This document shows positions 2,216 to 42,507 of a DNA stretch of 46,687 bases, piece by piece. The stretch comes from a virus. The DNA lies in the IMG/VR virus record IMGVR_UViG_3300027908_000010, positions 1 to 46,687 of that record. One strand, 5' to 3'. The notes under the pieces were generated by a model, which ran no database searches, was not told where the DNA came from, and saw only the letters and a program-made list of their open reading frames with translations. Position numbers and translations under genes: made by a program. The number at the start of each line of letters is the position of its first letter. Position 1 is the first letter of the stretch.

Positions 2216-2707
2216 ATGACTGAAAGAACCGCGGGGGAGATTCTTCTCGCCCAACTCGAGTACGACTGTCAGGAAGCTAAGGAGGCAGTCATACGCGCGA
2301 TAGAGTCAGGATCCGTATCCGACCAAGCCGAAGCCTTTGAGAACCTCTCCATGAGGACGGTACAGCGCTGGTGGCTTTCCCGCATGGTGAAGGAGCCCGA
2401 GAAGCCCTTAGATGCTGCCGAGCTACGCCAGAGGCAGCAGGACCGGGCGTCCTCGTATGCTCTGTGCGCTCAGATCATCAAAGCCCGATCCGGCCCCATC
2501 GACCCCGAATCGTTACAGGTCAGCGTCTTGGGTCTCTCAGCCGAGATCAATGCCATCTGGGCGGTGCTGATAGATTCAGCCTTGGTGACGCAGAACGACC
2601 GCCATAACTACATGGACGGCTCGGCAACCGAACTCTACGGCCGGGTTCAAGGGATGGCGGCCAAAATAGTCATGCCGGGCAGTAATGGATCAAAGCTCGC
2701 CACTTGA
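2216..2707 (+). CDS. hypothetical protein; candidate small terminase subunit by position
   Basis: 163 aa. GGGAGAG SD before the ATG. Overlaps the TerL start by 23 nt. No diagnostic motif was seen. Confidence 0.4.
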   Translation: MTERTAGEILLAQLEYDCQEAKEAVIRAIESGSVSDQAEAFENLSMRTVQRWWLSRMVKEPEKPLDAAELRQRQQDRASSYALCAQIIKARSGPIDPESLQVSVLGLSAEINAIWAVLIDSALVTQNDRHNYMDGSATELYGRVQGMAAKIVMPGSNGSKLAT

Positions 2708-4256
2708 GCTCGGGGAGGCGATCCTAGGGTCTATTGAGGATCCGGAGCTATTCGGGGAGCATTTCCTTCCCCACGACACCTGGGGGCCGTGGAAGGTAGT
2801 GCTGAAGTGTTTGTTCGGCATTCCTCTTGAGGCGGGGGAGATGGAACTCTTCCAAGCCTCAACCGGCCGCACTACGCCATTCCAGAGCGCTCTCAGAGAA
2901 GCCTGGATCATGTGCGGCAGGCGTTCGGGGAAATCCAGAATCTTTGCCCTCATCGCGGTTTGCTTGGCGACCTTCAAGGACTACACGCCCTATCTCGCAT
3001 TGGGTGAGCGGGCATTGATTGTGGTGATTGCGGTCGATAAGGAACAAGCCGGAGTGATCTTTGGTTATGCCCAGGCATTGATCGAACACACACCGATGCT
3101 CCGAAGGATGGTCGAGCGGCAGGACACAAGCTCCATCGATCTTAACAACCACGTCGCCATTGAGGTGCGGGTTGCAAGCTACCGCTCGGTCCGAGGCCGA
3201 ACCCTTGCCGCAGCATTATGCGATGAAGTCGCCTTCTGGCGGGATGACACCTCGAAGAACCCTGCCGATGCCGTGATGCGCGCTCTGAGGCCGGGACTTG
3301 CGACTATCCCCGGTGCTCCCCTCTTGGTTGCATCCTCGGTCTATTCCAAGTTCGGGCTTCTTTACGATTCATTTGTGAAGTACTGGGGGCGGGAGAATTC
3401 AAACATCCTCGTGTGGAAGTCCGACACGAAGACGATGAACCCGACTTTCTCTCAGGAAGTGATCGACCGGGCGTATGAGGACGATGCCACAGATGCCGCA
3501 ACCGAGTATGGAAGCGAGTTCCGTACCGACGTCTCCGCATTCCTAAGCGATGAGGACGTGGATGCCTCGATCCAGCGGGACCGCAGATCCTTGCCGATGT
3601 CGATGTCCTTTAGCTACTTTGCCTTTACCGACCTGTCAGGGGGCAGGAACGATGCTGCGGCCTTGGGAATTGCCCATCAGGAGACAGGCGGGAGGATCAT
3701 TCTCGATCGGTTGGACTGGGTACTTCCTCCTTTCAACCCCGAAAAGGCTGTCGAGCAGTTTGCCCTTGTGATGTCAGGTTATGCTCTCTCCCGGGTGATC
3801 GGGGATGAATACGCCGCGGAGTGGGTCGTTCAGGCTTTTGCCAAGCACGGGATTGGCTATGAGCCTGCGGAGTACTCTAAGTCCGAAATCTATTCAGAAT
3901 GCTTGCCGCTCTTCACCGCAAGGTTAATTGAAATCCTCGACATCAAGCCCCTCGAGGGGCAACTGAGACAGCTTGAGAGACGTCCTCGCACAACCGGTCG
4001 GGACTCCATCGATCATCCCCGTGGGGGTCATGACGATTTGGCCAATGCCGCTTTAGGCGCGGCGTGGGTATGCGCACGTAGTGGTGCACAGGTGAATGAG
4101 CCGGGAAGGTCTAGCGTGACCCACGCTGAAACCCAATACGACGTGCTAGGACGAGAGAACTCCCCTCAACGCGAGCATCGGGTGCGGGGAACATTTCCCT
4201 ACCGAGACGATGGCGTATATGCTGCCGAGCGCCAATATGATCCTCTCTCACGCTAA
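2685..4256 (+). CDS. terL: terminase large subunit
   Basis: 523 aa. Walker A-like CGRRSGKS, Walker B-like AALCDEVAFW, C-terminal nuclease-like half. Lies upstream of the portal. Confidence 0.9.
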   Translation: MDQSSPLELGEAILGSIEDPELFGEHFLPHDTWGPWKVVLKCLFGIPLEAGEMELFQASTGRTTPFQSALREAWIMCGRRSGKSRIFALIAVCLATFKDYTPYLALGERALIVVIAVDKEQAGVIFGYAQALIEHTPMLRRMVERQDTSSIDLNNHVAIEVRVASYRSVRGRTLAAALCDEVAFWRDDTSKNPADAVMRALRPGLATIPGAPLLVASSVYSKFGLLYDSFVKYWGRENSNILVWKSDTKTMNPTFSQEVIDRAYEDDATDAATEYGSEFRTDVSAFLSDEDVDASIQRDRRSLPMSMSFSYFAFTDLSGGRNDAAALGIAHQETGGRIILDRLDWVLPPFNPEKAVEQFALVMSGYALSRVIGDEYAAEWVVQAFAKHGIGYEPAEYSKSEIYSECLPLFTARLIEILDIKPLEGQLRQLERRPRTTGRDSIDHPRGGHDDLANAALGAAWVCARSGAQVNEPGRSSVTHAETQYDVLGRENSPQREHRVRGTFPYRDDGVYAAERQYDPLSR

Positions 4257-12417: not shown

Positions 12418-15195
12418 ATGTTCGAAGAGCCGCTGTACCCCCATCAGCCAAGTTTCTCCAAGGGCGAAGTATCCCCTGATCTTTATGGGCGGGCAGACCT
12501 ACAGGCGTATTCCTCAGCTCTTCGCACCTCGCGAAACGCTTTCATCAAAACCGAAGGCTCTTGGAGCAACCGTCCGGGTACTCAATATCTGGGCAACGCG
12601 GTCAACGTCACGGCCAAAGGCTCGGTCCTCATTCCGTTCGTCTTCTCGACGACTCAGAGCTACGTGCTTGAAATCGGTGTGGGAACCGCTCAGATCTTTT
12701 CAGACGGTGCACTGATTACCACTCTTGCCGTGCCGTGGCTTCTGTCGGAGCTGCCTTTCCTGCGCTATACGCAGTCTGCCGATACCTTGACCGTAGTGCA
12801 TCCCAATCACGTACCGCGGCAAATCACCCGTACCAGCGCGAGTGTTTTCAGCATTGCCTTTTTTGCCTACACGAACGGTCCCTTCATTCCCCAGAACACC
12901 GATGGGACGACCTTGGTATCTGCTTCAGGAATTACCGGAACCGTAACGCTTACCGCAAGCTCTGCAATCTTCAATGCCAACCATGTCGGAGCTTTGTTCT
13001 ATCTTGAGCAGCAGGACATCACGCCCATCACTCCGTGGACTCCGGAGACCTTGTTCGAAACCCCGACTAATCCTGTGGGAGTGCTGACCTATTCGAACCT
13101 GAAGAACTACAAGTGTGTCGCGGTAAACTTAGCCGGTGGCGCTACGAGCTTTTCTACCGGCACCGTAGCGCCGGATCATACCTACGGTACCCAGTGGGAC
13201 GGAATCGGACAGGGACTTACTGGGCTTGCAGGAGACGTAGGAGTTGCCTGGCAGTTTCAGGACTTCGGTTACGGTGTCGTCAAGATCACAGGTTTCACTG
13301 ACTCCATGCATGTGACGGCGGTGGTGCAGCCGGTCATTCCGGGACAACCTGCTTTGTTGCCCGCAACGGTCGTCGGTCCTCGGGCGGTTGCTGAGGGACC
13401 ATTTACCTTTACAGGCGATGGTGTCACCACGACCTTTGGCCCGCTGACTGCCGCAAGCAGCACGGATCCCAATAGGTTCTTCGTCACTCTTGCCGGGGTT
13501 TACGATCAGCCTCCGAACTACACGATTACCGGGACCACCATTGTTTTCCTTTCTCCCCCAGGGAATGGAGTAGCTATTTCTGTCTCTCAGGTGAACGGTC
13601 TTTATGCGACGAGCTTCTGGGCTTTTGGAGCTTTCAGCCCGGATCAAGGCTACCCATCGACGGTGAGTTACTTTCCAGACCGCTTGATCTTTGCCGGTAC
13701 TCCCTCTCAGCCGGTGGGGGTTTTTGGCAGCCAGACGAGCCAGTACACGAACTTTGCCATCAGTAACCCGGTGGTGAACTCCGATGCCTTCACGATATTC
13801 CTGAACGCCCGGCAACTGAATTCCATCTGCGATTTGATCCCGCTGCAGGATTTGATTGTCGGTACGGCCAATATCATCTGGCGACTCTGGCCCGGAATCA
13901 ACGGCACGGCTTTGGGGCCTTTGTCGATCGATGCCACTCCCCAGGCTTTCGTGGGAGAGACTTCAAGCTGCGCTGCGGTCCTGTACGGGGATTCTGTGAT
14001 CTACGCCATCTATGGCGGACGGCGTATCCGGGATTTGATCTATCAGTTTCAGTTCGACAAGTACGTCGGAGCTGAGCTTACCGCTTACAGCAGGCATTTG
14101 GTTCCCTTCGGGACGTACATCGTGAAGATGGTGTATGCACCGGATCCCTGGGGGCAACTCTTCGCGCTACGCAATGACGGGGCGCTTCTCACCTGTACCT
14201 ATGTGCGGGATCAGCAGATGATTGCCTGGTCTCGGTGGGATACCCAAGGAACTTTTGAGGATATCTGCATCGTTCCCGAGAACAACTCCTACGCGCTTTA
14301 TCTTCTTGCCAACCGGACGATTCAGGGTAAGTCCGCCCGCTATGTCGAGAGGCTTAATCAATGGGAATGGGCGACGATCTACGATTATAAGTTCTCCGAC
14401 TGCTCCCTAACCTACGACGGTAGGAACACCTCTCAGGCTTTGATGGTGCTGACCGGGGGGACTACTTGGCAGGCGGGCGATACCGGAACTTTGACCGCGA
14501 CTTCAACTGCGGGCTGGACGAATTTTCAAGCCTCCGACGTAACCCTTGGAAATGCGATTCAGCTTTTCAACGGCGCGCAGACCGTGGAGGCTCGAGTCCT
14601 CATCATCGGCTACACTTCTCCCACGGTCGTGAGTGTGCGGTTTATCGATCCCATTCCGCCTGACTTACAGGCGCAGGGACTCATTACCTGGACGTTTGCG
14701 AGAACTTATTTCACCGGAGCGACCCAGCTTGCAGGCCAGATGGTAGCGGTGCTTGCGGACTCGAATGCGATCAGCGGCACGAACGGAGTGCCTGTTTTAC
14801 AGGTGGCGAATGACGGTAGTTTCACGCTTCCTAACCCCTGCGGAGTCGTCACCATTGGCCTTCAGTATTTCTCAGACCTTGAGACCTTGGCTTTGAATCA
14901 GCCGGGGATCGAGACTGTTCGGGAGAGAACGAAGGGCATGCCGGGAGTATTCTTGGACGTCCATGCAACCCGCGGGCTTTTGACGGGAACAGATTTCGTC
15001 AACATGAGCGGCATCAAGGAGCGTGCGTTTGAGACTTACCTGCAACCCACGAACCTGCAGGAAGGCATCATCACGAACCGCATCGATACGGATTTCTCGA
15101 CCGAGTGCCATATCTGTGTCCGGCAGCCTTACCCGTTGCCGGTGACGATTCGCATGGTGATTCCGTCCGTCAATGTGGGAGTGCCTGCAGGATGA
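12418..15195 (+). CDS. large tail structural protein (tail tubular B / nozzle-like)
   Basis: 925 aa. The N-terminus MFEEPLYPHQPSFSKGEVSPDLYGRADLQAYSSALRTSRNAFIKTEGSWSNRPGTQYLG matches the conserved start I recall for podoviral tail-tube B-like proteins. Confidence 0.7.
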   Translation: MFEEPLYPHQPSFSKGEVSPDLYGRADLQAYSSALRTSRNAFIKTEGSWSNRPGTQYLGNAVNVTAKGSVLIPFVFSTTQSYVLEIGVGTAQIFSDGALITTLAVPWLLSELPFLRYTQSADTLTVVHPNHVPRQITRTSASVFSIAFFAYTNGPFIPQNTDGTTLVSASGITGTVTLTASSAIFNANHVGALFYLEQQDITPITPWTPETLFETPTNPVGVLTYSNLKNYKCVAVNLAGGATSFSTGTVAPDHTYGTQWDGIGQGLTGLAGDVGVAWQFQDFGYGVVKITGFTDSMHVTAVVQPVIPGQPALLPATVVGPRAVAEGPFTFTGDGVTTTFGPLTAASSTDPNRFFVTLAGVYDQPPNYTITGTTIVFLSPPGNGVAISVSQVNGLYATSFWAFGAFSPDQGYPSTVSYFPDRLIFAGTPSQPVGVFGSQTSQYTNFAISNPVVNSDAFTIFLNARQLNSICDLIPLQDLIVGTANIIWRLWPGINGTALGPLSIDATPQAFVGETSSCAAVLYGDSVIYAIYGGRRIRDLIYQFQFDKYVGAELTAYSRHLVPFGTYIVKMVYAPDPWGQLFALRNDGALLTCTYVRDQQMIAWSRWDTQGTFEDICIVPENNSYALYLLANRTIQGKSARYVERLNQWEWATIYDYKFSDCSLTYDGRNTSQALMVLTGGTTWQAGDTGTLTATSTAGWTNFQASDVTLGNAIQLFNGAQTVEARVLIIGYTSPTVVSVRFIDPIPPDLQAQGLITWTFARTYFTGATQLAGQMVAVLADSNAISGTNGVPVLQVANDGSFTLPNPCGVVTIGLQYFSDLETLALNQPGIETVRERTKGMPGVFLDVHATRGLLTGTDFVNMSGIKERAFETYLQPTNLQEGIITNRIDTDFSTECHICVRQPYPLPVTIRMVIPSVNVGVPAG

Positions 15196-18050
15196 GAAAA
15201 ATCATCCTCGTGGCATCGAATGCCCCTCCGGGGCCGGTGGTTCCTCCCCCGCCGCCACCGATCTTTGCGCCCTCGCTCGTAGCGCAGGCGGTGGGGACTG
15301 CGATAGTGAATTTCACCGGTACCCCTCCAAGTCCTCCACCGACTCCTAGTACGTTTACGCTGCAGTTCGGGACTTCAACCTCCGGGCCTTTCTCGTCGAT
15401 CACGCAAACAAGTCCCAACTTCAGTGAGACCGGTCTTCTTCCGAGCACTCAGTACTTCGGTCGATTGAACTACACGACAACGGAAACCCCTCCGCGCACG
15501 AGTGCATGGTCCGCATTTGCCAATGCAACGACTGGGGCAACCCCTCCAATCCAGACCGGGATTCAATGGTATCCCGGCGACTACATGGGATTGGGATTGA
15601 CGAATGATCTGCCGACGCTCTTAGGCCAAATCGATCAAGTCGCATCGACTGCTCAGTCAACCGGTGCAGATGTCACTGGCATCTACCTCATCCAGCAATG
15701 GAACTGGATGGAGTTCGCGGAAGGGGTTTACACGCAAGGTTCCGGACTCTCAGCTCAGGGCATTGCAGCGATTCAGCAGATTTTGGCGAAGTGCGCAAGC
15801 TACGGCTTTCAACTCATTCTTGGTATCACGAGCAAAGTTTTCAGCACCAGTACTATCACGACAGATACTGCAACTCCGCCGTATTTTCAGACGACCAAAG
15901 ATTCAACCGGCGCGTTGCCGCTTTATTTGGTATCCACGAACATCAGCAGTACGGGTTATCTCGCCGCAATGGCGAAGAACTATGATTCTGTAGTCACACA
16001 GCGCCGCATTGCCTGGGCGAATGCCTACGGAAAAGCTTTTGACGGCCAGCCGTTCTTCTACGGTATCCGTGATTGCGATGAGACCTCAAGCGGTCTCTAC
16101 AACGGCGATCAGAATTACAATTTGCAGGTCGGGCAAATGTGCGGGGTCAATCCTACCGGAGGCGCGGTCTCTCCGACTTGGGGGACAGGATATCGCGCAG
16201 CCTTCCCGACGAGCTATATCAGCTACACCACGAACTTCATGAATGGGACGCCGGGAGTCACAACAACCCAGTTCCAAACACTTTTCACGAACTCTATCCC
16301 GCAAGCCATCGGTCAGGGAGGCCCGGACAGTTCGGCAAATCTTTCCCAGCCGAATGACATGCAGGTTTTCAACGGATATCTGGGCGGAATCGACTACCGC
16401 CTGCGTATTCCTTTCACTCAAGAATTACAGAGCATCCGCGGCGATCAGTCGGTTTCGATGCTGTCGGTGACGAACTTTTATTCGGTGAACGGCTCCCTCG
16501 CTCTCGGTGGCCAGTGCTTCCCCTCTCACCGTCTATGGGGTGTGTTCTTTGGTTCCCTGCCTGTCGCAGGAACGGGAGGGGCAACGATCACATGGAACCT
16601 GCAGAACGTCTGTCAGTTCCTTGCGACCTCGAAACCTCCAATCAACACGGTAAAGCCGACAAGCTACGCACCGATATTCAATTACTACATCGGCCCTTCG
16701 GGCAGTGATAGCAATCCTGGCACTCAGGCGAGCCCTTGGGCGCTGACAGCCATCAACACCAAGCAATCAACCTATGCGGGAAAGTCCGTAGGAGTGCTTC
16801 CGGGAACTTACAATTGTCTCTCCCTCGTCGGTGGAAGCTATACAGGGGACTTTTCGACCCCTGCATTCTTCATAGCCGGAGGAACTGCTACCTCTCAGAC
16901 CGTCATTCAATCTACGGTTGCGTTGGGAGCCATTCTTGACGGCGGCGCGAATGCGACGAACAACCCTAATGGGCAACCGTTGATCGGCAACGTCGGAACT
17001 GGATGCCAGTACATCACGCTCGACGGTTTTGAAATCAAGAACTGCTTTAACCGGGCGGTGTCATTCGGTGTGACGACAGAGGCTTTTGGTACTCAGCCGA
17101 CTCAATTGGCATCCGGCCTTCTCGTGCAGAACAACTACGTACACACGATCACGAATACGCTGCCTGCCGCCAACACGACCGCCATTACGGTCTACTCCTC
17201 GAACGGAGCAATTGTTCAGAATAACTATGTGACCGATATCCAGGACACTACGGTGCGCGGCGATGCGATTGAGATCTGGACCTCCATCAATAGCATCGTG
17301 CAGTACAACACGGTCATTGCTCAGGGCGTTGGGATGTATGCGGGGATAGTGAACAAGAATCAGTGGAACTGGAACAATACGATCAGGTTCAACTATATCG
17401 ACCTGACTCTTGCCGGTACTGGAGCCAATCAGGGCGGCATTGTGATGGATTCCAATGGCGCTGGGTCAACGGTAGACATTGCGAACAACAACATCGTGAT
17501 TGCGGATTATCCGGTAGGCTCGTATTTGATTGTGACCGGGGCTTTTCCAGCCTCAGTTAATCAGCAACGCTGGTTCAACAATACCTTCATTGGGATTCCG
17601 AACGAAAGCAACGTCGGCTTCTACCGGTTAGGTGCCCCCGGCACGATGACGTTCTTCAACAATATCTTTGTTCGTGGAACGGTTGGGTACAGGGGAGATG
17701 TGGATATCTCAGCAAGTGCTGCTGCGCTCATGGACTACAACTGCTATCCGGCCTCTCCCAAGCTTGGGTTGACGGCAGATGGAACGCAGAATAGCCCAGT
17801 AGTTTATAACTCGACTTCTGCTTTAGGCGCGGCGCTGCCAAGTGCTTGTGTGGGCAAAGAAGCTCATTCAATCATGACCAATACGCCGGGTTTTGTAATG
17901 ACAGGAACCTTGGCAGCGCAATATCAGTTGGCGAGCGGGAGCGCCGCACAAGGCAAAGGTAGCACCACAGGAACGACTGCCGGTGTTGCTACTGACATGG
18001 GCGCATGGGGGAATGGGGCTTTGAGAATAGGTTGTAACTTTACGCCATGA
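15192..18050 (+). CDS. multi-domain tailspike/depolymerase: Pro-rich linker, FN3-like domain, TIM-barrel-like glycosidase-like region, right-handed beta-helix
   Basis: 952 aa from ATG 15192 (ATGA overlap with the upstream stop). PPPPPPP linker. FN3-like TFTLQFGTSTSG...STQYFGRLNYTT. Beta-helix rungs NNYVHTITN, IVQNNYVTDIQD, NNTIRFNYIDL, NNNIVIADY, FNNTFIG, FFNNIFVRG. Confidence 0.8.
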   Translation: MRKIILVASNAPPGPVVPPPPPPIFAPSLVAQAVGTAIVNFTGTPPSPPPTPSTFTLQFGTSTSGPFSSITQTSPNFSETGLLPSTQYFGRLNYTTTETPPRTSAWSAFANATTGATPPIQTGIQWYPGDYMGLGLTNDLPTLLGQIDQVASTAQSTGADVTGIYLIQQWNWMEFAEGVYTQGSGLSAQGIAAIQQILAKCASYGFQLILGITSKVFSTSTITTDTATPPYFQTTKDSTGALPLYLVSTNISSTGYLAAMAKNYDSVVTQRRIAWANAYGKAFDGQPFFYGIRDCDETSSGLYNGDQNYNLQVGQMCGVNPTGGAVSPTWGTGYRAAFPTSYISYTTNFMNGTPGVTTTQFQTLFTNSIPQAIGQGGPDSSANLSQPNDMQVFNGYLGGIDYRLRIPFTQELQSIRGDQSVSMLSVTNFYSVNGSLALGGQCFPSHRLWGVFFGSLPVAGTGGATITWNLQNVCQFLATSKPPINTVKPTSYAPIFNYYIGPSGSDSNPGTQASPWALTAINTKQSTYAGKSVGVLPGTYNCLSLVGGSYTGDFSTPAFFIAGGTATSQTVIQSTVALGAILDGGANATNNPNGQPLIGNVGTGCQYITLDGFEIKNCFNRAVSFGVTTEAFGTQPTQLASGLLVQNNYVHTITNTLPAANTTAITVYSSNGAIVQNNYVTDIQDTTVRGDAIEIWTSINSIVQYNTVIAQGVGMYAGIVNKNQWNWNNTIRFNYIDLTLAGTGANQGGIVMDSNGAGSTVDIANNNIVIADYPVGSYLIVTGAFPASVNQQRWFNNTFIGIPNESNVGFYRLGAPGTMTFFNNIFVRGTVGYRGDVDISASAAALMDYNCYPASPKLGLTADGTQNSPVVYNSTSALGAALPSACVGKEAHSIMTNTPGFVMTGTLAAQYQLASGSAAQGKGSTTGTTAGVATDMGAWGNGALRIGCNFTP

Positions 18051-19907: not shown

Positions 19908-20366
19908 GTGGGCTTCTCAACCCCACAAGCCGGGGGCGGGATGATTAGGGCGGGAGCCGATATTGCCGCAGGCGATACCCGCTCTAACCTCGAAAATGCC
20001 AATGCCGAAATCGCCTCCCAGCAGGCGAAGTCTGAAATGGCCTCCGGTGCTTATGGTGCAAACCTTGCCCGGCAGCGCGGAGCCAAGATCACCGGCCAGC
20101 AGGTCTCTGCTATTGGTGCAAACAATTTACAGCAGACCGGCACACCCTCTGCTGTCGTTGCCGATACCGCAAGAGCTTCCGAACAGAACGCCCTGCAAAC
20201 CCAGAATAACGCTTTAAGACGCGCATGGGGATTTGAGGTGCAAGGAGCATCCGATAAGGTTCAAGGGGATCTTGCCGAGCAAGGAGGTATCTTGAGTGGA
20301 ATAGGCTCCTTGGCGAGTGCTGGCGGCAGTATCTACCGCTATCAGAATGCACCTTCGGGAACGTAA
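19908..20366 (+). CDS. Gly/Ala/Gln-rich hypothetical virion protein
   Basis: 152 aa. GTG start 1 nt after the upstream stop. TAATG junction with the fibre gene. Confidence 0.55.
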   Translation: MGFSTPQAGGGMIRAGADIAAGDTRSNLENANAEIASQQAKSEMASGAYGANLARQRGAKITGQQVSAIGANNLQQTGTPSAVVADTARASEQNALQTQNNALRRAWGFEVQGASDKVQGDLAEQGGILSGIGSLASAGGSIYRYQNAPSGT

Positions 20367-21850
20367 TGGCTCAACGGCTTCTTCTCAATCCCGACACTCA
20401 AGAATGGGTCTATTACGGGGATCCGCTCTACACAACCCTGCAAGCTGCGGATGCGAACTTCACAGAGCTTTATAACGCAGACGGCCTTTTGCCTATCCCG
20501 CCTGGAACCCTTTTGGGCAATGCCTCGGGTGCAGCGGCTGTACCGGCCGCTATTACAGCGTTGCCTTTGGGAGTCAGTACTGCTGGCGGCTCCCCGCCGG
20601 TTGGGACTACAGACACTCAAACCCTCACCAACAAGACGCTTTTAAGCATTGGCAGCTCCACCGTCACAACGACCGATGGGTTAACTGCGACTCTTGCCGC
20701 GAGATTCGAGGATGTCACGACCATCACGGGGTTACCTGCTGCGCCATCCATTTCTGGACCTGAAATTTTCCCCGCCGTACAGGCGGGAAGCGATGTCAAA
20801 GTAACCGCGACGCAGATCGCGGCCTTTATACGCTCCCTTGGTGGAGCTTCTCCCTTTGCGAGCTGGGGCGTACCGGTCATCCTTTTGCCTTCAGCTTTCA
20901 TCGCCAATAACGGCGTCATCGTCATCGGTCAGGCTCCTTCAGGATCAGCAAACGTCACACTGAGCGCAACAAGTGGCACAGGAGTTACGGCAACATTCGG
21001 CGCTGCAACGCTCATTGGTTCCTCAGCCGATGTAGGTCGGGTACTGACGATTTTGGACTCAAGCACGTACCGTTATTTCACGGTCACGGGCAACAGCGGC
21101 AGTTCGACCACCATCTGTCAGGGCACGATTAGCGGCGGCACGCTGGGCACGATGACCTATGCCAATAGCCTCATTTGGTTGACTGGTCCTCCTTCGGGTA
21201 ACACGACGACTTTTTCAGGTCCACTGCCGACAATCTTTGCGAATTGCTATGTGTACCTTCCGGCTGGAGCGATAGCTACAGGTATTCCCGCAACCGGAGG
21301 CGCGGTTTATTACGCTCAATTCGTTTCAACTACCGTAGGGACAGTGTTCAATAACGTACTCTCAGGCATCCCGAGCTTGATCGGCTCTCCGACGCTATTT
21401 GCGACTACGAGTCCCGGCACCGGATATGCACAGAGTCAGCTCACTCAAACGCTCATCTCCATCAATATTCCAGCAGGCTCGATGGGGAACAATGGCGCTC
21501 TCATCTTCGACATCCCAGCCTCAAGCACGGATAACTCCGACACCATTCCCATGACGGCGACTTTCGGAGGTTCGCTCGTTGCGACAAACGGAGGCGCGAC
21601 ATCCTCTGGGGGCTCGCGCGGGGTGTTCCACAGGACAATCAGGAACATGGCATCTCAAGGGATACAGAATATGTTTCCCGCTACTGCCGGGGCGGTAGCC
21701 GATTCAGCCGCATCGACGATGGACCCGACTTTCACCCTTATCGACACGACCCAGGCACAGACGTTTGCTGTGACTTCCAGGCTCTTCACTTCCGCCATGG
21801 ATTACACCGTGATTTACGGCGGACGCATAGAACTTGATTACGCCGCATGA
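20366..21850 (+). CDS. tail fibre protein 1
   Basis: 494 aa. N-terminal module YGDPLYTTLQAADANFTELY is shared with the 22838 ORF. Fibre-type TDTQTLTNKTL motif. Ser/Thr/Gly-rich beta-rich body. Confidence 0.75.
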   Translation: MAQRLLLNPDTQEWVYYGDPLYTTLQAADANFTELYNADGLLPIPPGTLLGNASGAAAVPAAITALPLGVSTAGGSPPVGTTDTQTLTNKTLLSIGSSTVTTTDGLTATLAARFEDVTTITGLPAAPSISGPEIFPAVQAGSDVKVTATQIAAFIRSLGGASPFASWGVPVILLPSAFIANNGVIVIGQAPSGSANVTLSATSGTGVTATFGAATLIGSSADVGRVLTILDSSTYRYFTVTGNSGSSTTICQGTISGGTLGTMTYANSLIWLTGPPSGNTTTFSGPLPTIFANCYVYLPAGAIATGIPATGGAVYYAQFVSTTVGTVFNNVLSGIPSLIGSPTLFATTSPGTGYAQSQLTQTLISINIPAGSMGNNGALIFDIPASSTDNSDTIPMTATFGGSLVATNGGATSSGGSRGVFHRTIRNMASQGIQNMFPATAGAVADSAASTMDPTFTLIDTTQAQTFAVTSRLFTSAMDYTVIYGGRIELDYAA

Positions 21851-38485: not shown

Positions 38486-38740
38486 TTAATTTTCGCCAAG
38501 GATCTTACGAATGCGCGCATGCGTGTCCATGCCCAAGCCGCCATTGTTATCTAGCTCTTTGAGCAGCGCTCGCCATTTTGGCTCTGGCGGGTCAGGGTCT
38601 TGCTCAGCTAAAAGCTCGCCCTCGCAGGACCAATACTGGGTGATGCGCCGCATGGGATCTTCCTGCGTACCTTTCCCGCGCACCGTAAGAGACGTGCGGA
38701 TCACTGGAATTATATAAACGTCTGTATTTGGTGCGCTCAC
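38486..38740 (-). CDS. hypothetical small protein
   Basis: 84 aa. GTGA-coupled upstream. Confidence 0.55.
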   Translation of the reverse strand: MSAPNTDVYIIPVIRTSLTVRGKGTQEDPMRRITQYWSCEGELLAEQDPDPPEPKWRALLKELDNNGGLGMDTHARIRKILGEN

Positions 38741-39009
38741 TTGGCCTCCGGTGTCGTTTGATCTTCGGGTTTGTCCGGCAGAACTTTATTCAGCCAGTCG
38801 CGCAGTGCGCGGGCCTCATGCACGTACATCCAATAGGCTCCGAGGAATAGGCACTGCCCTTGCACCTTGGCGCGTAGGCGCTCGAACGTTGGCGGCGAAG
38901 GGATACGCTCCTCAAAATGCAGGGAAAAGTCGTCTGCTTTGTTGAAGGTCTCCTCTCGTTTAGGTGCCTCATGACCGTCAGACATATGCCCGCAGTGCGT
39001 TGCGCTCAT
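38737..39009 (-). CDS. hypothetical protein (90 aa from ATG 39009)
   Basis: GGAGG SD and an ATGA overlap with the upstream gene's stop support the internal start MSATHCG. Confidence 0.5.
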   Translation of the reverse strand: MSATHCGHMSDGHEAPKREETFNKADDFSLHFEERIPSPPTFERLRAKVQGQCLFLGAYWMYVHEARALRDWLNKVLPDKPEDQTTPEAK

Positions 39010-39443
39010 GCCGCCTCCCATCTGAGTTTTTGCTGTAAAGGATGCTCGTCTGTGCGAGGCCGCGAACGTCGGGACCAACCTTTCTTCGTAGGCTTAGTCT
39101 TGCCTGTCACCTTGAAACCTGCGCCGCGTAAGCTCGCTCCGCTTTCTTCAACGAGTGTATAGGTAAGTACCTTGCGATAGCCCATTGCCGTTGCCACACG
39201 CACGCAGACGCGATACAGGAAGCTACAAGCGTTTGGAGTGCCATCGGTGCAGCACCGCCGGATTTCAACCGTATTGCCGTCCTGAAGCATCCTAGCGACC
39301 GGCATGGCTACAATCGCACAGCCCACGAATCTACCCTCATGCTCACAGCCCACAGCGAACAGCGCGCCCTGAATCTTCTTTTTCAGGTGGCGGTGATTCG
39401 CAGCCACGTAGGCGGTAGCAGCTCGTAGAGTCATAGGCTTCAC
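39006..39443 (-). CDS. small GNAT-fold protein of the XF1762 / Mom-like type (candidate DNA base-modifying acyltransferase)
   Basis: 145 aa. ANHRHLKKKIQGALFAVGCEHEGRFVGCAIVAMPVARMLQDGNTVEIRRCCTDGTPNACSFLY...YTLVEESGASLRGAGF matches the motif order I recall for this family (HxH ... vG.aivg.P.ar ... EirR ... NA.S ... tYt...E.G.SL.aaGf). Confidence 0.55.
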   Translation of the reverse strand: MKPMTLRAATAYVAANHRHLKKKIQGALFAVGCEHEGRFVGCAIVAMPVARMLQDGNTVEIRRCCTDGTPNACSFLYRVCVRVATAMGYRKVLTYTLVEESGASLRGAGFKVTGKTKPTKKGWSRRSRPRTDEHPLQQKLRWEAA

Positions 39444-39445
39444 GT

Positions 39446-39571
39446 TCAGTGCCGTCTCTCCGAGCTGTCACGCCACATCGCATTGCTGCGAGACCGGTAC
39501 AACCCGGCAGATCGGGCGGCGTTCCCCATTGGCCTGTGCTGCGTCATGTTGTTACGCTTGCATCGCTTCAT
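39446..39571 (-). CDS. possible 41-aa Arg-rich ORF that exactly fills the dam-GNAT gap
   Basis: Hand translation gives MKRCKRNNMTQHRPMGNAARSAGLYRSRSNAMWRDSSERRH. ATGA overlap with the dam stop, and it ends 2 nt before the GNAT GTG. The composition is also typical of chance ORFs in GC-rich DNA. Confidence 0.2.
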   Translation of the reverse strand: MKRCKRNNMTQHRPMGNAARSAGLYRSRSNAMWRDSSERRH

Positions 39572-40281
39572 GGTTTCGGTGTCACGGTTTGATCAGGTAA
39601 CACGCGCCCGTTGCCCTTGCACCGCGAGCACGTATACGAACTCAGGTGCGCACCGCCCGGACCTACCGGCCAGTGCGGTTCAATTTCACCCGTGCCACGG
39701 CAATTCGGACACTGGATCGTGCGCTGGTGCCAATCGATGCTGCTCACGGCTTCTCCGGCGGTTACACTGGGTCGCCAGACCTTCGCCCGGACGCCCAAAA
39801 GCTCACTGTCTAAAAGCGCGATCGCCATATCCTCGCCGTAGGCGCACAACACGATTCCGAAAGGCGGACACGTAACTTTGTCGCTCGAGGAAGCCCCCGG
39901 CCTGTGCCCGCGCTCGAAGTAGATGCGGCCTTTCAGGAATATCAGCGCTTGCGCGGCGTTCATGTAGTCCTGCAGGGCGTGCGTTTCGGTGCGCGCTGGC
40001 ATAAGCGCAATACCGTACCCGTGCTCGACCATTCGCTCGTACCATGGCCGCTTCCCTGAGAATGGCGGATTGAGCCACACAGCGCCTTGCCAGTCGGCTG
40101 TGAGGCCATTCTCAACCTTGGTCAGATGAACCTTCGCCGGGACTGACGACGGTGGAGCGCCTGGGCTGCACGGATCCAGATCGAAGGCGACGCCCAAGGA
40201 TTTGAACAGCCACGATGGTGTGTACCATTCATCGCTCTTGGGGCTAATGCCAGCGGTATCGAACAAATCTGCTTGTCTCAC
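39568..40281 (-). CDS. dam: phage-type DNA N6-adenine methyltransferase fused to a DnaJ-type CxxCxGxG zinc finger
   Basis: 237 aa. SDEWYTPSWLF...FDLDPC...WQGAVWLNPPFSG (NPPF motif IV). C-terminal CPNCRGTG...CSRCKGNG. Confidence 0.8.
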   Translation of the reverse strand: MRQADLFDTAGISPKSDEWYTPSWLFKSLGVAFDLDPCSPGAPPSSVPAKVHLTKVENGLTADWQGAVWLNPPFSGKRPWYERMVEHGYGIALMPARTETHALQDYMNAAQALIFLKGRIYFERGHRPGASSSDKVTCPPFGIVLCAYGEDMAIALLDSELLGVRAKVWRPSVTAGEAVSSIDWHQRTIQCPNCRGTGEIEPHWPVGPGGAHLSSYTCSRCKGNGRVLPDQTVTPKP

Positions 40282-40475
40282 TGACTCTCCGATGTTGCGC
40301 CGCTGCGCAAGCAGTGTGGGCGGGCTCTGACAGGGCTTGAGTACTTGCCCCTAGTTTCGCCTTGCAGGCGGGTGGCACTGTTAGTCGGGAACGCTGCACA
40401 TCCAGCAGCTCCGGACGTTACGTTTTGCGCCGTGGGGGATCTCGCCCGTTTCCTGAGTTTCCTGTCAGGGCCCAT
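40278..40475 (-). CDS. doubtful 65-aa Arg/Ser-rich ORF filling the gap upstream of dam
   Basis: GTGA overlap with the dam start. Low-complexity composition. Could equally be noncoding leader. Confidence 0.2.
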   Translation of the reverse strand: MGPDRKLRKRARSPTAQNVTSGAAGCAAFPTNSATRLQGETRGKYSSPVRARPHCLRSGATSESQ

Positions 40476-40480
40476 AACTT

Positions 40481-41189
40481 TTACCTAGGTTCCGGTGTTG
40501 CGCAGGAAGCGCGTCGTGCGATCGAGAGAAGCAAATCCCGAAACGCTAGCGGTGTACGGCTTGCCTCTTTGGGTTTCAGTCGTGGCAGTGGCGAATCGCC
40601 ATGGTTGGCGCAGTATGAAATCTGCGCAGTCGGCTCCGGCACCGACCAATCAAGGGATGGCGGCGTGCCGGGTCCAAAGAAATATAGCCACGTCAGCTTG
40701 CGCGCCTTGTGGCCGTACGCTCCCTGAGATACCTGGGCGACCCAGCCGCCGCAGATAGCCTTCACCCAGCCCGCTCGAGGAGGCCGTGGCAGGCCAAACT
40801 TCGGCCACGCATACGAGAAGGCCGGATGCTCAAGAACGCCTCCCCAGCGCCGTACGGCTGCGAGCGCGGCGGCAAAGCAACCGCCATCGTCACCCACCTT
40901 GTAGCCGTAGCGCTTCTGGATGATGTAGGCGAGCTGGCACCAACGAGAACACGGGGGGATGAGCGACTACGGGATGCGGCCCTTTGTAGGCTCTGGCGTC
41001 TCGATCGAGGGTCCACGGATGAACACCAGGGAGTCCGCAATACACACCGTCAGTTTCCACGAAAAGGGCAGCAACAATCGGCATATAGGTACATGGACAG
41101 TCGGATACGCAATCCCCATCGCCGCTATAGCCAGCGCCATTGCAATCCACGCACACCGGGTCAGGCAGGCACATTAAGCGATCATCCAT
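40481..41189 (-). pseudogene. Cys-rich N-terminus plus C5-cytosine-methyltransferase-like core (HPPC ... LEHP ... QxxYGHxAxKxT), interrupted by a +1 frameshift at a C6 run
   Basis: ORFs 40890..41189 and 40481..40897 join if one C of the run (G6 on + strand, 40953..40958) is skipped. The read-through is ...VVAHPP|CSRWCQLAYIIQKRYGYKVGDDGGCFAAAL... Confidence 0.7.
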
Positions 41190-41313
41190 TGTGACCAGTG
41201 CATACGCGCTTCAAATATCCGCAGCGCTGGCAGCGCGCAAAGTACGGGATGCCCAACTCATCAACCAGCGACCTATAGAACAGGTGGCCTTTGAACCAGC
41301 AGATCACTCGCAT
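41182..41313 (-). CDS. 43-aa zinc-ribbon-like mini-protein (below the ORF-track cutoff)
   Basis: Hand translation gives MRVICWFKGHLFYRSLVDELGIPYFARCQRCGYLKRVCTGHNG. The start shares one base with the upstream stop. Its end overlaps the next ATG (ATGGATGA). Confidence 0.4.
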   Translation of the reverse strand: MRVICWFKGHLFYRSLVDELGIPYFARCQRCGYLKRVCTGHNG

Positions 41314-41615
41314 CACGGCGCTGTCACCCGCTCTGGATGCCACGGGCATAGCTCCCATTCGCCTACTTCCTCGCGCTTGCGGTCGGCCTCGGGCGGTTTC
41401 TTCAGCTCAAGACAGTTATCGCAGGCCCAAGCTCTTTGGTATGTGGCCCAAGGCGGCGCGTCGATACACGGTAGGTCGAGTTCGTAGAACAGCCCGTCGC
41501 GGTCGATTGGATCGACGCTGATCACGGTGGTTTCCTTGCCAGCATAGTAATGCGGCTCCCCGTCGTAACAGCGGCAACTGCGCACGATGCAAACGTCGCC
41601 AACCTTGAATTTCAC
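41313..41615 (-). CDS. Cys-containing hypothetical protein
   Basis: 100 aa. GTG start with AGGAGA 7 nt upstream. Confidence 0.55.
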   Translation of the reverse strand: MKFKVGDVCIVRSCRCYDGEPHYYAGKETTVISVDPIDRDGLFYELDLPCIDAPPWATYQRAWACDNCLELKKPPEADRKREEVGEWELCPWHPERVTAP

Positions 41616-42131: not shown

Positions 42132-42507
42132 TCAACTGGCTCTCTTGAACACTTTGCTCGCTGGCCAATCTGCCGCGAGCATGAGGTCCTTCTGCACCAC
42201 AAGATAAAGCTCGTATTCGGTTCCGTAACGCTTGTTGAAGATCTTCCTGCCTGCAGCAATCGAGGCAGGAGTTCCTACTCCTCGCCAGAACTGCCTCTGC
42301 GGCTCGGTCCACTGTCCGCGGTGATGCCCGGCACACAGGGGCAGAGTAAATGCATGGCCTAGCCTGTGGCCGCGCAAGATGTGGTGGACCTCCGGAGGAA
42401 ACCCAATTCCAGTAGCGGAGGGACTCGATTCGACACGCCACGCACCCTAACTGCAGCATGCGGGTGAATCGTTCCTGCTCGGCACGGGTGGGTTTGGGGT
42501 GGTTCAT
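42132..42507 (-). pseudogene. HNH-type nuclease (Ref / DUF968-like CxxC...HH...PLCxxHH), split by a +1 frameshift
   Basis: Frame 1 from ATG 42507 reads MNHPKPTRAEQERFTRMLQLGCVACRIE... The +1 frame reads ...GIGFPPEVHHILRGHRLGHAFTLPLCAGHHRGQW... to the stop at 42132. The two halves of a single zinc/HNH motif therefore lie in different frames. Confidence 0.7.

Follow-up and report, generated by a model that had tools for sequence, protein, structure and literature searches.

A short Mom homologue, a Dam methyltransferase with a zinc-finger tail and a frameshifted phrog_12600 gene side by side in a soil phage genome

Among the closest described relatives of the genes considered here is Mom of phage Mu, a glycyl-tRNA-dependent N6-carbamoylmethyl-adenine synthase that requires no partner enzyme from the phage (PMC13219725). 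Residues R111, S124 and R151 of Mu Mom are essential, activity is drastically reduced in the H58A mutant and greatly reduced in the D149A mutant, and a helix-turn-helix (HTH)-like insertion spanning residues 175-209 is also needed for activity (PMC13219725). A second point of reference is Gp8 of the Rhodobacter microvirus Ebor, which was labelled a putative DNA methylase by its authors from an HHpred match (E 2.3e-8); Ebor DNA gave only 1.6% 5-methylcytosine (5mC) calls, and the authors could assign no methylation to Gp8 (PMC11980548). Here we describe three genes, all on the minus strand and co-oriented within a leftward early operon, in the virus record IMGVR_UViG_3300027908_000010, whose full 46,687 nt constitute the stretch analysed (hereafter the window). 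A preliminary description of this DNA had located the three open reading frames (ORFs) correctly (Table 1) and had proposed that they form one unit for a compound hypermodification of DNA. We find instead that they are probably three unrelated accessory genes of the anti-restriction type, separately mobile and acting independently in the early operon.

Each of the three genes is a further member of a catalogued family, one with a rare zinc-finger fusion and one a fresh pseudogene. Gene 1 belongs to phrog_12600, which is matched by both halves of the gene (profile positions 3-45, E 2.4e-16, and 59-197, E 4e-37). Gene 2 encodes a Dam-family methyltransferase, with a match to Pfam PF05869 of 46.8 bits against a cut-off of 28.1 (E 3.4e-12) and to phrog_111 with E 4e-34. 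Gene 3 matches NCBIfam NF045478 (XF1762_fam) at 172.8 bits against a cut-off of 50 (E 3.5e-51), with residues 1-143 covering positions 2-143 of the 143 in the profile, and it also matches phrog_1384 ('Mom-like'), the PHROG that contains Mu Mom. When PADLOC was run over the window, the only call was 'orphan MTase' (methyltransferase), for gene 2.

The genomic surroundings of related genes were scanned with profiles, up to 5 kb either side of each homologue, at 160 loci that carry gene 1 homologues (80 viral and 80 genomic) and at 80 viral loci that carry XF1762 homologues. An XF1762 gene was found at 3 of the 160 gene 1 loci and a gene 1 family member at 2 of the 80 XF1762 loci, while true Mom homologues were present at one of the former and none of the latter. 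Dam family genes (4/160 and 2/80) and those of the MT-A70 class (6/160 and 3/80) were also rare; C5-methyltransferases were encountered at 6 gene 1 loci and 23 XF1762 loci, and N6_N4 methyltransferases at 26 and 13, respectively. The zinc-finger tail of gene 2 had no match at any of the 240 related loci (0/160 and 0/80). Clustering of the neighbours of gene 1 homologues revealed no fixed partner, the commonest being an N6_N4 methylase, SSB, DnaB, RusA and integrases. A methyltransferase gene of varying class (C5, N6_N4, MT-A70 or Dam) directly adjoins XF1762 in the same orientation at about 10 of the 80 loci. The closest relatives of the gene 2 Dam and of the gene 3 XF1762 protein reside in different neighbourhoods. 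Because co-occurrence is rare and the neighbourhoods of relatives differ, the trio appears to be a local coincidence in a variable accessory region.

The preliminary description had suspected a frameshift in gene 1, and the lesion proved to be real. In the window the gene is split into two ORFs, 41189..40890 (99 amino acids) and 40897..40481 (138 amino acids), which overlap by 8 nt. Removal of one C from the six-C run in CAT CCC CCC GTG yields an unbroken protein of 235 amino acids that reads ...AHPPCSRWC... across the repaired site. The metagenome contig L243 (P0001), whose DNA is 93% and whose protein is 98% identical, has five Cs at this position and an intact gene 1. The window corresponds to the 46.7-kb soil-metagenome contig ENA ERZ923594, to which it is 100% identical over the 12.4 kb compared, and it is also represented in JGI and Logan assemblies; the six-C allele is found in this independent ENA assembly as well, and a cut-off gene 1 product of 94 amino acids is present on 5 of the 5 contigs on record for the phage. 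A near-identical variant, P0002, retains the six-C frameshift and differs at two nearby bases (window positions 40959-40972); these changes abolish the stop codon of the alternative frame and turn the nearly invariant Val75 of the repaired protein into Leu, and P0002 as called is a chimeric protein of 219 amino acids. No contig is on record for P0001 or P0002. Sequencing error was considered as the cause and rejected at the level of assemblies, as independent ones of the short-read style agree. Since a 93%-identical relative is intact and the six-C allele recurs in independent assemblies, the lesion is taken to be both real and recent. As judged from sequence, gene 1 of this phage is a fresh pseudogene, inactivated recently by one additional nucleotide within the codons for the catalytic HPPC, and its full-length product would be made at best at a low level, through +1 slippage of tRNA-Pro on CCC-C.

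Gene 3, which had been called an XF1762/Mom-like GNAT, was compared with Mu Mom. The AlphaFold2 model of its product has a GNAT fold (predicted local distance difference test score, pLDDT, 87.5), and in a Foldseek search with this model the Mu Mom structure 8BV8 gave the highest query TM-score among the matches listed (TMq 0.77) and ranked fifth by E-value. Alignment of the XF1762 profile with a profile of nine Mom sequences by hhalign gave a probability of 97.3% and E 2.7e-11 over 151 columns. Among the profile comparisons, the relationship was seen with this nine-sequence profile only: hhalign of XF1762 against Mom alone produced a weak match, a search of PDB sequences with the XF1762 profile did not retrieve Mom, and the Pfam Mom model PF25680 had no match to gene 3 at E<=10, while relatives of gene 3 scored 24.7-29.3 bits against its cut-off of 27.1. 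The assignment nevertheless held under profile and structure searches, which place gene 3 as a homologue of Mom and not merely among ordinary acetyltransferases.

Three of the functionally important residues of Mu Mom, H58, R111 and S124, correspond to invariant residues H14, R60 and S71 of gene 3. In contrast, D149, which is conserved in nine aligned Mom-family sequences, is replaced by an invariant Leu94, and R151 by Glu96; an invariant Glu97 lies three residues past the D149 position. The HTH-like insertion of Mom is missing from the gene 3 protein, which has 142 amino acids compared with 241 for Mu Mom, and its place is taken by a loop between the last two strands (residues 113-135), about 23 residues long, basic and conserved, in which the model has low confidence. 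Gene 3 has signatures of its own that Mom does not share (HHRHH and W.R..R.R.D.HP.Q.K.RWE), and it is accompanied neither by a com-like regulator nor by the Dam/OxyR-type GATC cluster of the Mu system. The 124-nt spacer upstream of gene 3 holds a single GATC instead of a Mu-like cluster, and the frequency of GATC in the genome is ordinary, without depletion. Homologues of gene 3, annotated as 'Mom-like' or 'acetyltransferase', occur in Burkholderia phage phi1026b (gp66, 47% identical), in Mycobacterium abscessus prophages and in Streptomyces phage Samy. The phi1026b member and a gene for a 434-amino-acid DNA methyltransferase overlap (L266, 2989-4733), whereas in the window the Dam-zinc-finger gene sits 124 nt upstream. 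We conclude that XF1762 proteins are homologous to Mom yet distinct from it, a 'mini-Mom' for which a nucleic-acid target is plausible. Gene 3 would most likely use an activated donor, either acyl-CoA or aminoacyl-tRNA, to place an acyl or aminoacyl group on a nucleic-acid base, and its product need not equal that of Mom.

Some further features of XF1762 loci were noted in passing. DUF5131 (PF07505) is encoded within 3 kb of XF1762 in 7 of the 80 loci, and so, also in 7 of the 80 and mostly directly upstream, is an unidentified 267-amino-acid protein with a PP-loop-like SLGAGVQSS motif. At one gene 1 locus (L017, IMGVR_UViG_3300005435_000386), a long true Mom homologue of 213 amino acids (E 6e-60 against Mu Mom) is located just upstream of a gene 1 family gene (~1.2-1.9 kb and 2529-3284).

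The family to which gene 1 belongs is very large, with 2256 clusters at 50% identity and more than 8000 homologues by shared words. All of the motifs listed for gene 1 in the preliminary description (HPPC, LEHPA.S, Q..YGH.A.K.TWL and TP..F) are present, and C45, E85, Q120, K129, T131 and P178 (P0001 numbering) are invariant among 67 diverse members with 41-59% identity. The Cys-rich N-terminus that had also been pointed out is present in the ORF, although it is not a conserved feature of the family: most members have about 190 amino acids and begin at the equivalent of M36, and the extension is missing from most homologues, with P0060 carrying a different one (CxxC...CxxC). Within the Cys-rich stretch there are three substitutions relative to L243, all of them synonymous in the gene 1 frame. 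Members of the family are found in prophages across many bacterial phyla, among isolated Ralstonia, Pseudomonas and Caulobacter phages, and also in 6-kb microviruses that lack any other modification gene. This occurrence in microviruses argues that the gene 1 family works alone and can function without a partner gene from the phage. Among the members from small phages are Ebor Gp8 and proteins of Tortoise microvirus 37, a Ciona-associated microvirus and the 10.9-kb Xanthomonas phage fSU1. Fusion partners in long members of the family were uninformative, amounting to one NUDIX and one HNH-AP2. Two copies with the same match statistics are separated by about 63 kb on a single scaffold of Rhodoplanes elegans, NZ_NHSK01000074 (L159, 12.9-23.5 kb, and L160, 76.0-86.6 kb), and these are probably either two related prophages or a duplication.

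Ebor Gp8 (L162, 3986-4477) clearly belongs with gene 1 in phrog_12600 (E 1.6e-34), sharing with it the elements AALF, RDAR.Y.G, AHPPC, GGVLEHPA, GHRA.K.T and ERTP. It differs from gene 1 in being intact, with 163 amino acids and no Cys-rich extension.

Gene 1 had been likened to C5-cytosine DNA methyltransferases that lack the S-adenosylmethionine (AdoMet)-binding motif I, and several observations agree with this comparison. The AlphaFold2 model of the protein (pLDDT 90.6) was used for a Foldseek search in which the top 50 PDB matches were all C5 DNA methyltransferases, although weak ones (E 9e-3 or worse, TMq ~0.38), and most matches in BFVD were likewise weak matches to C5-methyltransferases. 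The counterparts of motifs IV and VI are a Pro-Cys with the invariant C45 (in HPPC) and the invariant E85 (in LEHP), each shared by the 67 members. These two residues are separated by 40 positions in gene 1 and by 38 in M.HhaI, and the distance from the Glu to the YG dipeptide is 38 in both, such that the YG...basic motif mirrors motif VIII of M.HhaI in its spacing. When the gene 1 profile was aligned with a profile of 49 C5-methyltransferase sequences, PC, D.(R)G.(L)F, E(N/H)(V/P) and YG...R/K were paired in collinear order.

The differences from these enzymes are nevertheless substantial. Members of the gene 1 family have about 190 amino acids, compared with at least 320 for C5-methyltransferases (M.HhaI, M.HaeIII and DNMT3; PF00145). 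The AdoMet loop FxGxG of motif I does not occur in gene 1, which has AALFVETDGVY and no GxG at this point, and the motif I-IV segment is about 26 residues shorter, with 37 residues from F8 to C45 where M.HhaI has 63. Gene 1 lacks helices A and B as well as motif II, and in the model strands 1 and 2 have no helix between them. Of motif III, a possible Asp counterpart alone is seen, in the family consensus VDPW, and the gene 1 protein of this phage has His there. There is also no target-recognition domain, as about 35 residues separate the TWLYFFG strand from the C-terminal TP..F helix.

At the sequence level the link to C5-methyltransferases does not reach significance: the alignment with the 49-sequence profile carried little weight (hhalign probability 2%, P ~0.02), pairwise Smith-Waterman comparison with M.HhaI was no better than with shuffled sequences (z = 0.3-1.3), and Pfam gave no match for repaired gene 1 (E<=10) or for the 67 diverse members. 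The fold matches themselves are weak (Foldseek E ~1e-2, TM ~0.38). Single-sequence and profile searches of PDB sequences and of NCBIfam with gene 1 were also negative. A shallow gene 1 profile aligned by hhalign with M.HhaI alone or with a six-sequence profile gave only a spurious match of 12 residues, which was discarded. Taken together, the motifs and the model weakly suggest that gene 1 is a divergent, stand-alone mini-enzyme built on the catalytic core of C5-methyltransferases; membership of PF00145 cannot be demonstrated. In the intact relatives, C6 of a pyrimidine would be attacked by Cys45, with Glu85 as the proton donor to N3.

Gene 2 had been described as a Dam methyltransferase with an NPPF motif that is unusually fused to two CxxCxGxG repeats, and both parts of this description were borne out. 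The motifs of phage Dam enzymes are recognizable as EWYTP, DLDPC and NPPF (in the context VWLNPPFSGK), although the score for TIGR01712 (31.4 bits) does not reach the equivalog cut-off of 97.05. The repeats in the tail are exact, CPNCRGTG at residues 190-197 and CSRCKGNG at 219-226. The tail scores 27.0 bits (E 5.6e-6) against Pfam DnaJ_CXXCXGXG (PF00684), which is under the cut-off of 32.7, and it also has a sub-threshold match to Anti-TRAP in Pfam (E 5.2e-5). DnaJ contains four such repeats compared with two in gene 2, and two would be enough for one DnaJ-type zinc centre.

Among the 120 closest Dam homologues listed, the tail is confined to the phage's own cluster. The other 119 are 67-79% identical in the Dam domain, align over only 68-76% of the query, are mostly of 167-190 amino acids and have no zinc-finger Pfam domain; likewise, only 2 of the 802 phage records with gene 2 homologues cover at least 80% of the query. 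The fusion of Dam to a zinc finger is thus real and unusual, and among the homologues listed it is specific to this lineage. A J-domain protein of 211 amino acids (PF00226) that overlaps the start of a Dam gene in L267 (2879-4064) was examined as a lead and set aside, for it has no CxxCxGxG and is unrelated to the fusion; the L267 phage Dam is 77% identical to gene 2 and lacks a zinc finger. By analogy with its family, gene 2 would catalyse AdoMet-dependent N6-adenine methylation of phage DNA and thereby block restriction enzymes sensitive to N6-methyladenine, and the tail, with its one predicted zinc centre, may add a contact to DNA or to a partner.

If the three genes constitute one island, as had been proposed, a compound or novel hypermodified base would be the joint product of Dam, the GNAT related to Mom and the protein with the catalytic Cys, or else Dam methylation would license the GNAT as in Mu. 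The proposal draws on the relationship of all three genes to base-modifying enzymes and on their common orientation in a single operon with short spacers. Some of the neighbourhood data also count against our own reading of three independent genes. A DNA methyltransferase of any class lies within 5 kb at 37 of the 80 XF1762 loci (46%), compared with 33 of the 160 gene 1 loci; in a few loci (L139, L225, L229 and L017) a gene 1 homologue directly adjoins a homologue of XF1762 or Mom; and the evidence on co-occurrence covers only the 5 kb on either side of each homologue. This loose association with methyltransferases in general, the one recurring signal, supports a DNA-related role of XF1762 and not a specific coupling of Dam to Mom, and XF1762 may be tied to DNA methylation in some looser functional way. 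Against a joint pathway stand the finding of the trio in the window phage only and a pairwise co-occurrence within 5 kb of about 2-3%, the varying class of the methyltransferases beside XF1762 and the absence of a GATC cluster upstream of gene 3. Furthermore, gene 1 is broken in this phage, its homologues persist in microviruses without partner genes, and Mu Mom operates without a phage partner enzyme (PMC13219725). We regard such a pathway as very improbable, and retain as the probable explanation that three unrelated anti-restriction-type genes have come to lie side by side.

A second alternative is that neither gene 1 nor gene 3 modifies DNA. XF1762 proteins might be ordinary acetyl-CoA-dependent acetyltransferases of a protein, a small molecule or tRNA, as could be argued from the generic GNATs (RimI, PaiA and phosphinothricin acetyltransferases) that have the best Foldseek E-values, from the Leu at the position of Mom D149 and the loss of the long insertion, and from the name 'acetyltransferase' given to mycobacteriophage homologues by SEA-PHAGES annotators. 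Yet the homology to Mom is specific (E 2.7e-11), equivalents of R111 and S124 are retained, the highest TM-score among the gene 3 matches belongs to Mom, a conserved basic loop occupies the site of the DNA-binding insertion of Mom, and XF1762 genes are enriched beside DNA methyltransferases. Gene 1 might similarly be a non-catalytic DNA-binding or decoy protein, or act on RNA, in keeping with the lack of an AdoMet loop and a target-recognition domain and with the few 5mC calls in Ebor DNA, to which no enzyme was assigned (PMC11980548). However, it would be hard to explain why a non-enzyme should keep one Cys and one Glu unchanged in all 67 of the diverse members, and the only structural matches of the HPPC protein in the PDB, weak as they are, are DNA methyltransferases. 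This alternative seems unlikely to us, though less so than a joint pathway. A further question is whether the frameshift in gene 1 is decoded rather than inactivating. On the tetranucleotide CCC-C, tRNA-Pro is known to be prone to +1 slippage, and if this tRNA re-paired on the overlapping CCC in CCC-CCC-G, the +1 shift would restore exactly H-P-P-C and produce the full-length protein, perhaps at a down-tuned level. A tolerated, slippage-decoded gene would fit the presence of the six-C allele in all assemblies of the phage and in the slightly different variant P0002, which speaks against a fresh pseudogene, and it would fit the 98% protein identity that both halves still show to the intact relative, compared with 93% for the DNA. 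On the other hand, the slip site is not followed by a rare codon, a stop codon or another stimulatory element, the next codon in the zero frame being an unremarkable CCC; all other members of the family that were examined lack the shift, the closest relative simply has five Cs, and the Val-to-Leu change of P0002 at a nearly invariant site (V75 in repaired gene 1 and V40 in P0001) may be a sign of relaxed constraint. Decoding by slippage is thus an improbable account, and we continue to view gene 1 of this phage as a recently inactivated gene.

By the look of its gene content, the window is a roughly complete genome of about 46.7 kb from a tailed soil phage. A rightward structural block (~1-33 kb) encodes terminase, portal/adaptor, major head and tail proteins, and two large ORFs in this block, 15105-18050 (+, 981 amino acids) and 20366-21850 (+, 494 amino acids), have no PHROG match at E<=1e-5. 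Apart from numerous small ORFs of no known function, the leftward early operon (~33-45 kb) encodes a cI-like repressor and a RecA-dependent nuclease; the nuclease has 81 amino acids and is encoded at 42132-42377 (-), with PF16786 in the precomputed annotation and phrog_1588 as its family. The start or stop signals of genes 1 and 3 overlap those of uncharacterized neighbouring ORFs (Table 1). The 58-amino-acid ORF has no Pfam match and no family match, and the 90-amino-acid ORF has no PHROG or Pfam match; the two appear to be translationally coupled to gene 1 and gene 3, respectively. The window contains no tRNA genes, and a nucleotide search of GenBank phages with the three-gene region returned no match.

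Table 1. Positions in the window of the three genes, their parts and the overlapping ORFs
Feature	Position	Strand	Remarks
58-amino-acid ORF with CxxC	41182..41358	-	Stop overlaps gene 1 ATG (ATGGATGA)
Gene 1, frameshifted phrog_12600 member	40481..41189	-	Repaired product 235 amino acids; PHROG matches on both halves
Cys-rich N-terminal extension of gene 1, 35 amino acids (C7, C13, C16, C27, C31, C33)	41085..41189	-	Lineage-specific; start ATG overlaps upstream ORF stop
Six-C run within the His-Pro-Pro-Cys codons of gene 1	40953..40958	-	One-base insertion; site of frameshift
Gene 2, Dam-family N6-adenine DNA methyltransferase domain, residues 1-180, NPPF	39742..40281	-	Pfam PF05869, phrog_111
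Gene 2, C-terminal tail, residues 181-237, two CxxCxGxG repeats	39568..39741	-	Repeats ~39601-39714
Gene 3, XF1762-family GNAT	39006..39443	-	145 amino acids from GTG, or 142 from ATG at 39434
90-amino-acid ORF	38737..39009	-	ATG overlaps gene 3 stop (ATGA); also called as a gene in L001

For the locus itself the outcome is mostly deflationary, as nothing points to a dedicated hypermodification pathway of three enzymes and one of the genes is broken. The interest rests with the chemistry of XF1762 and phrog_12600 proteins at large and not with the locus in the window. XF1762 is a widespread homologue of Mom at half its size that has kept two of the catalytic residues and lacks the DNA-binding insertion, and the use of Gly-tRNA by Mom for adenine modification was itself shown only recently. 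The phrog_12600 family has thousands of members, ranging from prophages of many phyla to 6-kb microviruses, with a Cys/Glu core and no recognizable AdoMet site. It is conceivable, if rather doubtful at present, that each carries out new nucleic-acid chemistry: the 'mini-Mom' might place a different group on a DNA base from acyl-CoA or from an aminoacyl-tRNA other than Gly-tRNA, and the gene 1 family might perform a Cys-dependent reaction at pyrimidine C5 with an unusual cofactor or little specificity. If so, the recurrent adjacency of XF1762 and methyltransferase genes could reflect a two-step logic. Either family could broaden the known repertoire of DNA modifications and anti-restriction tools in phages.

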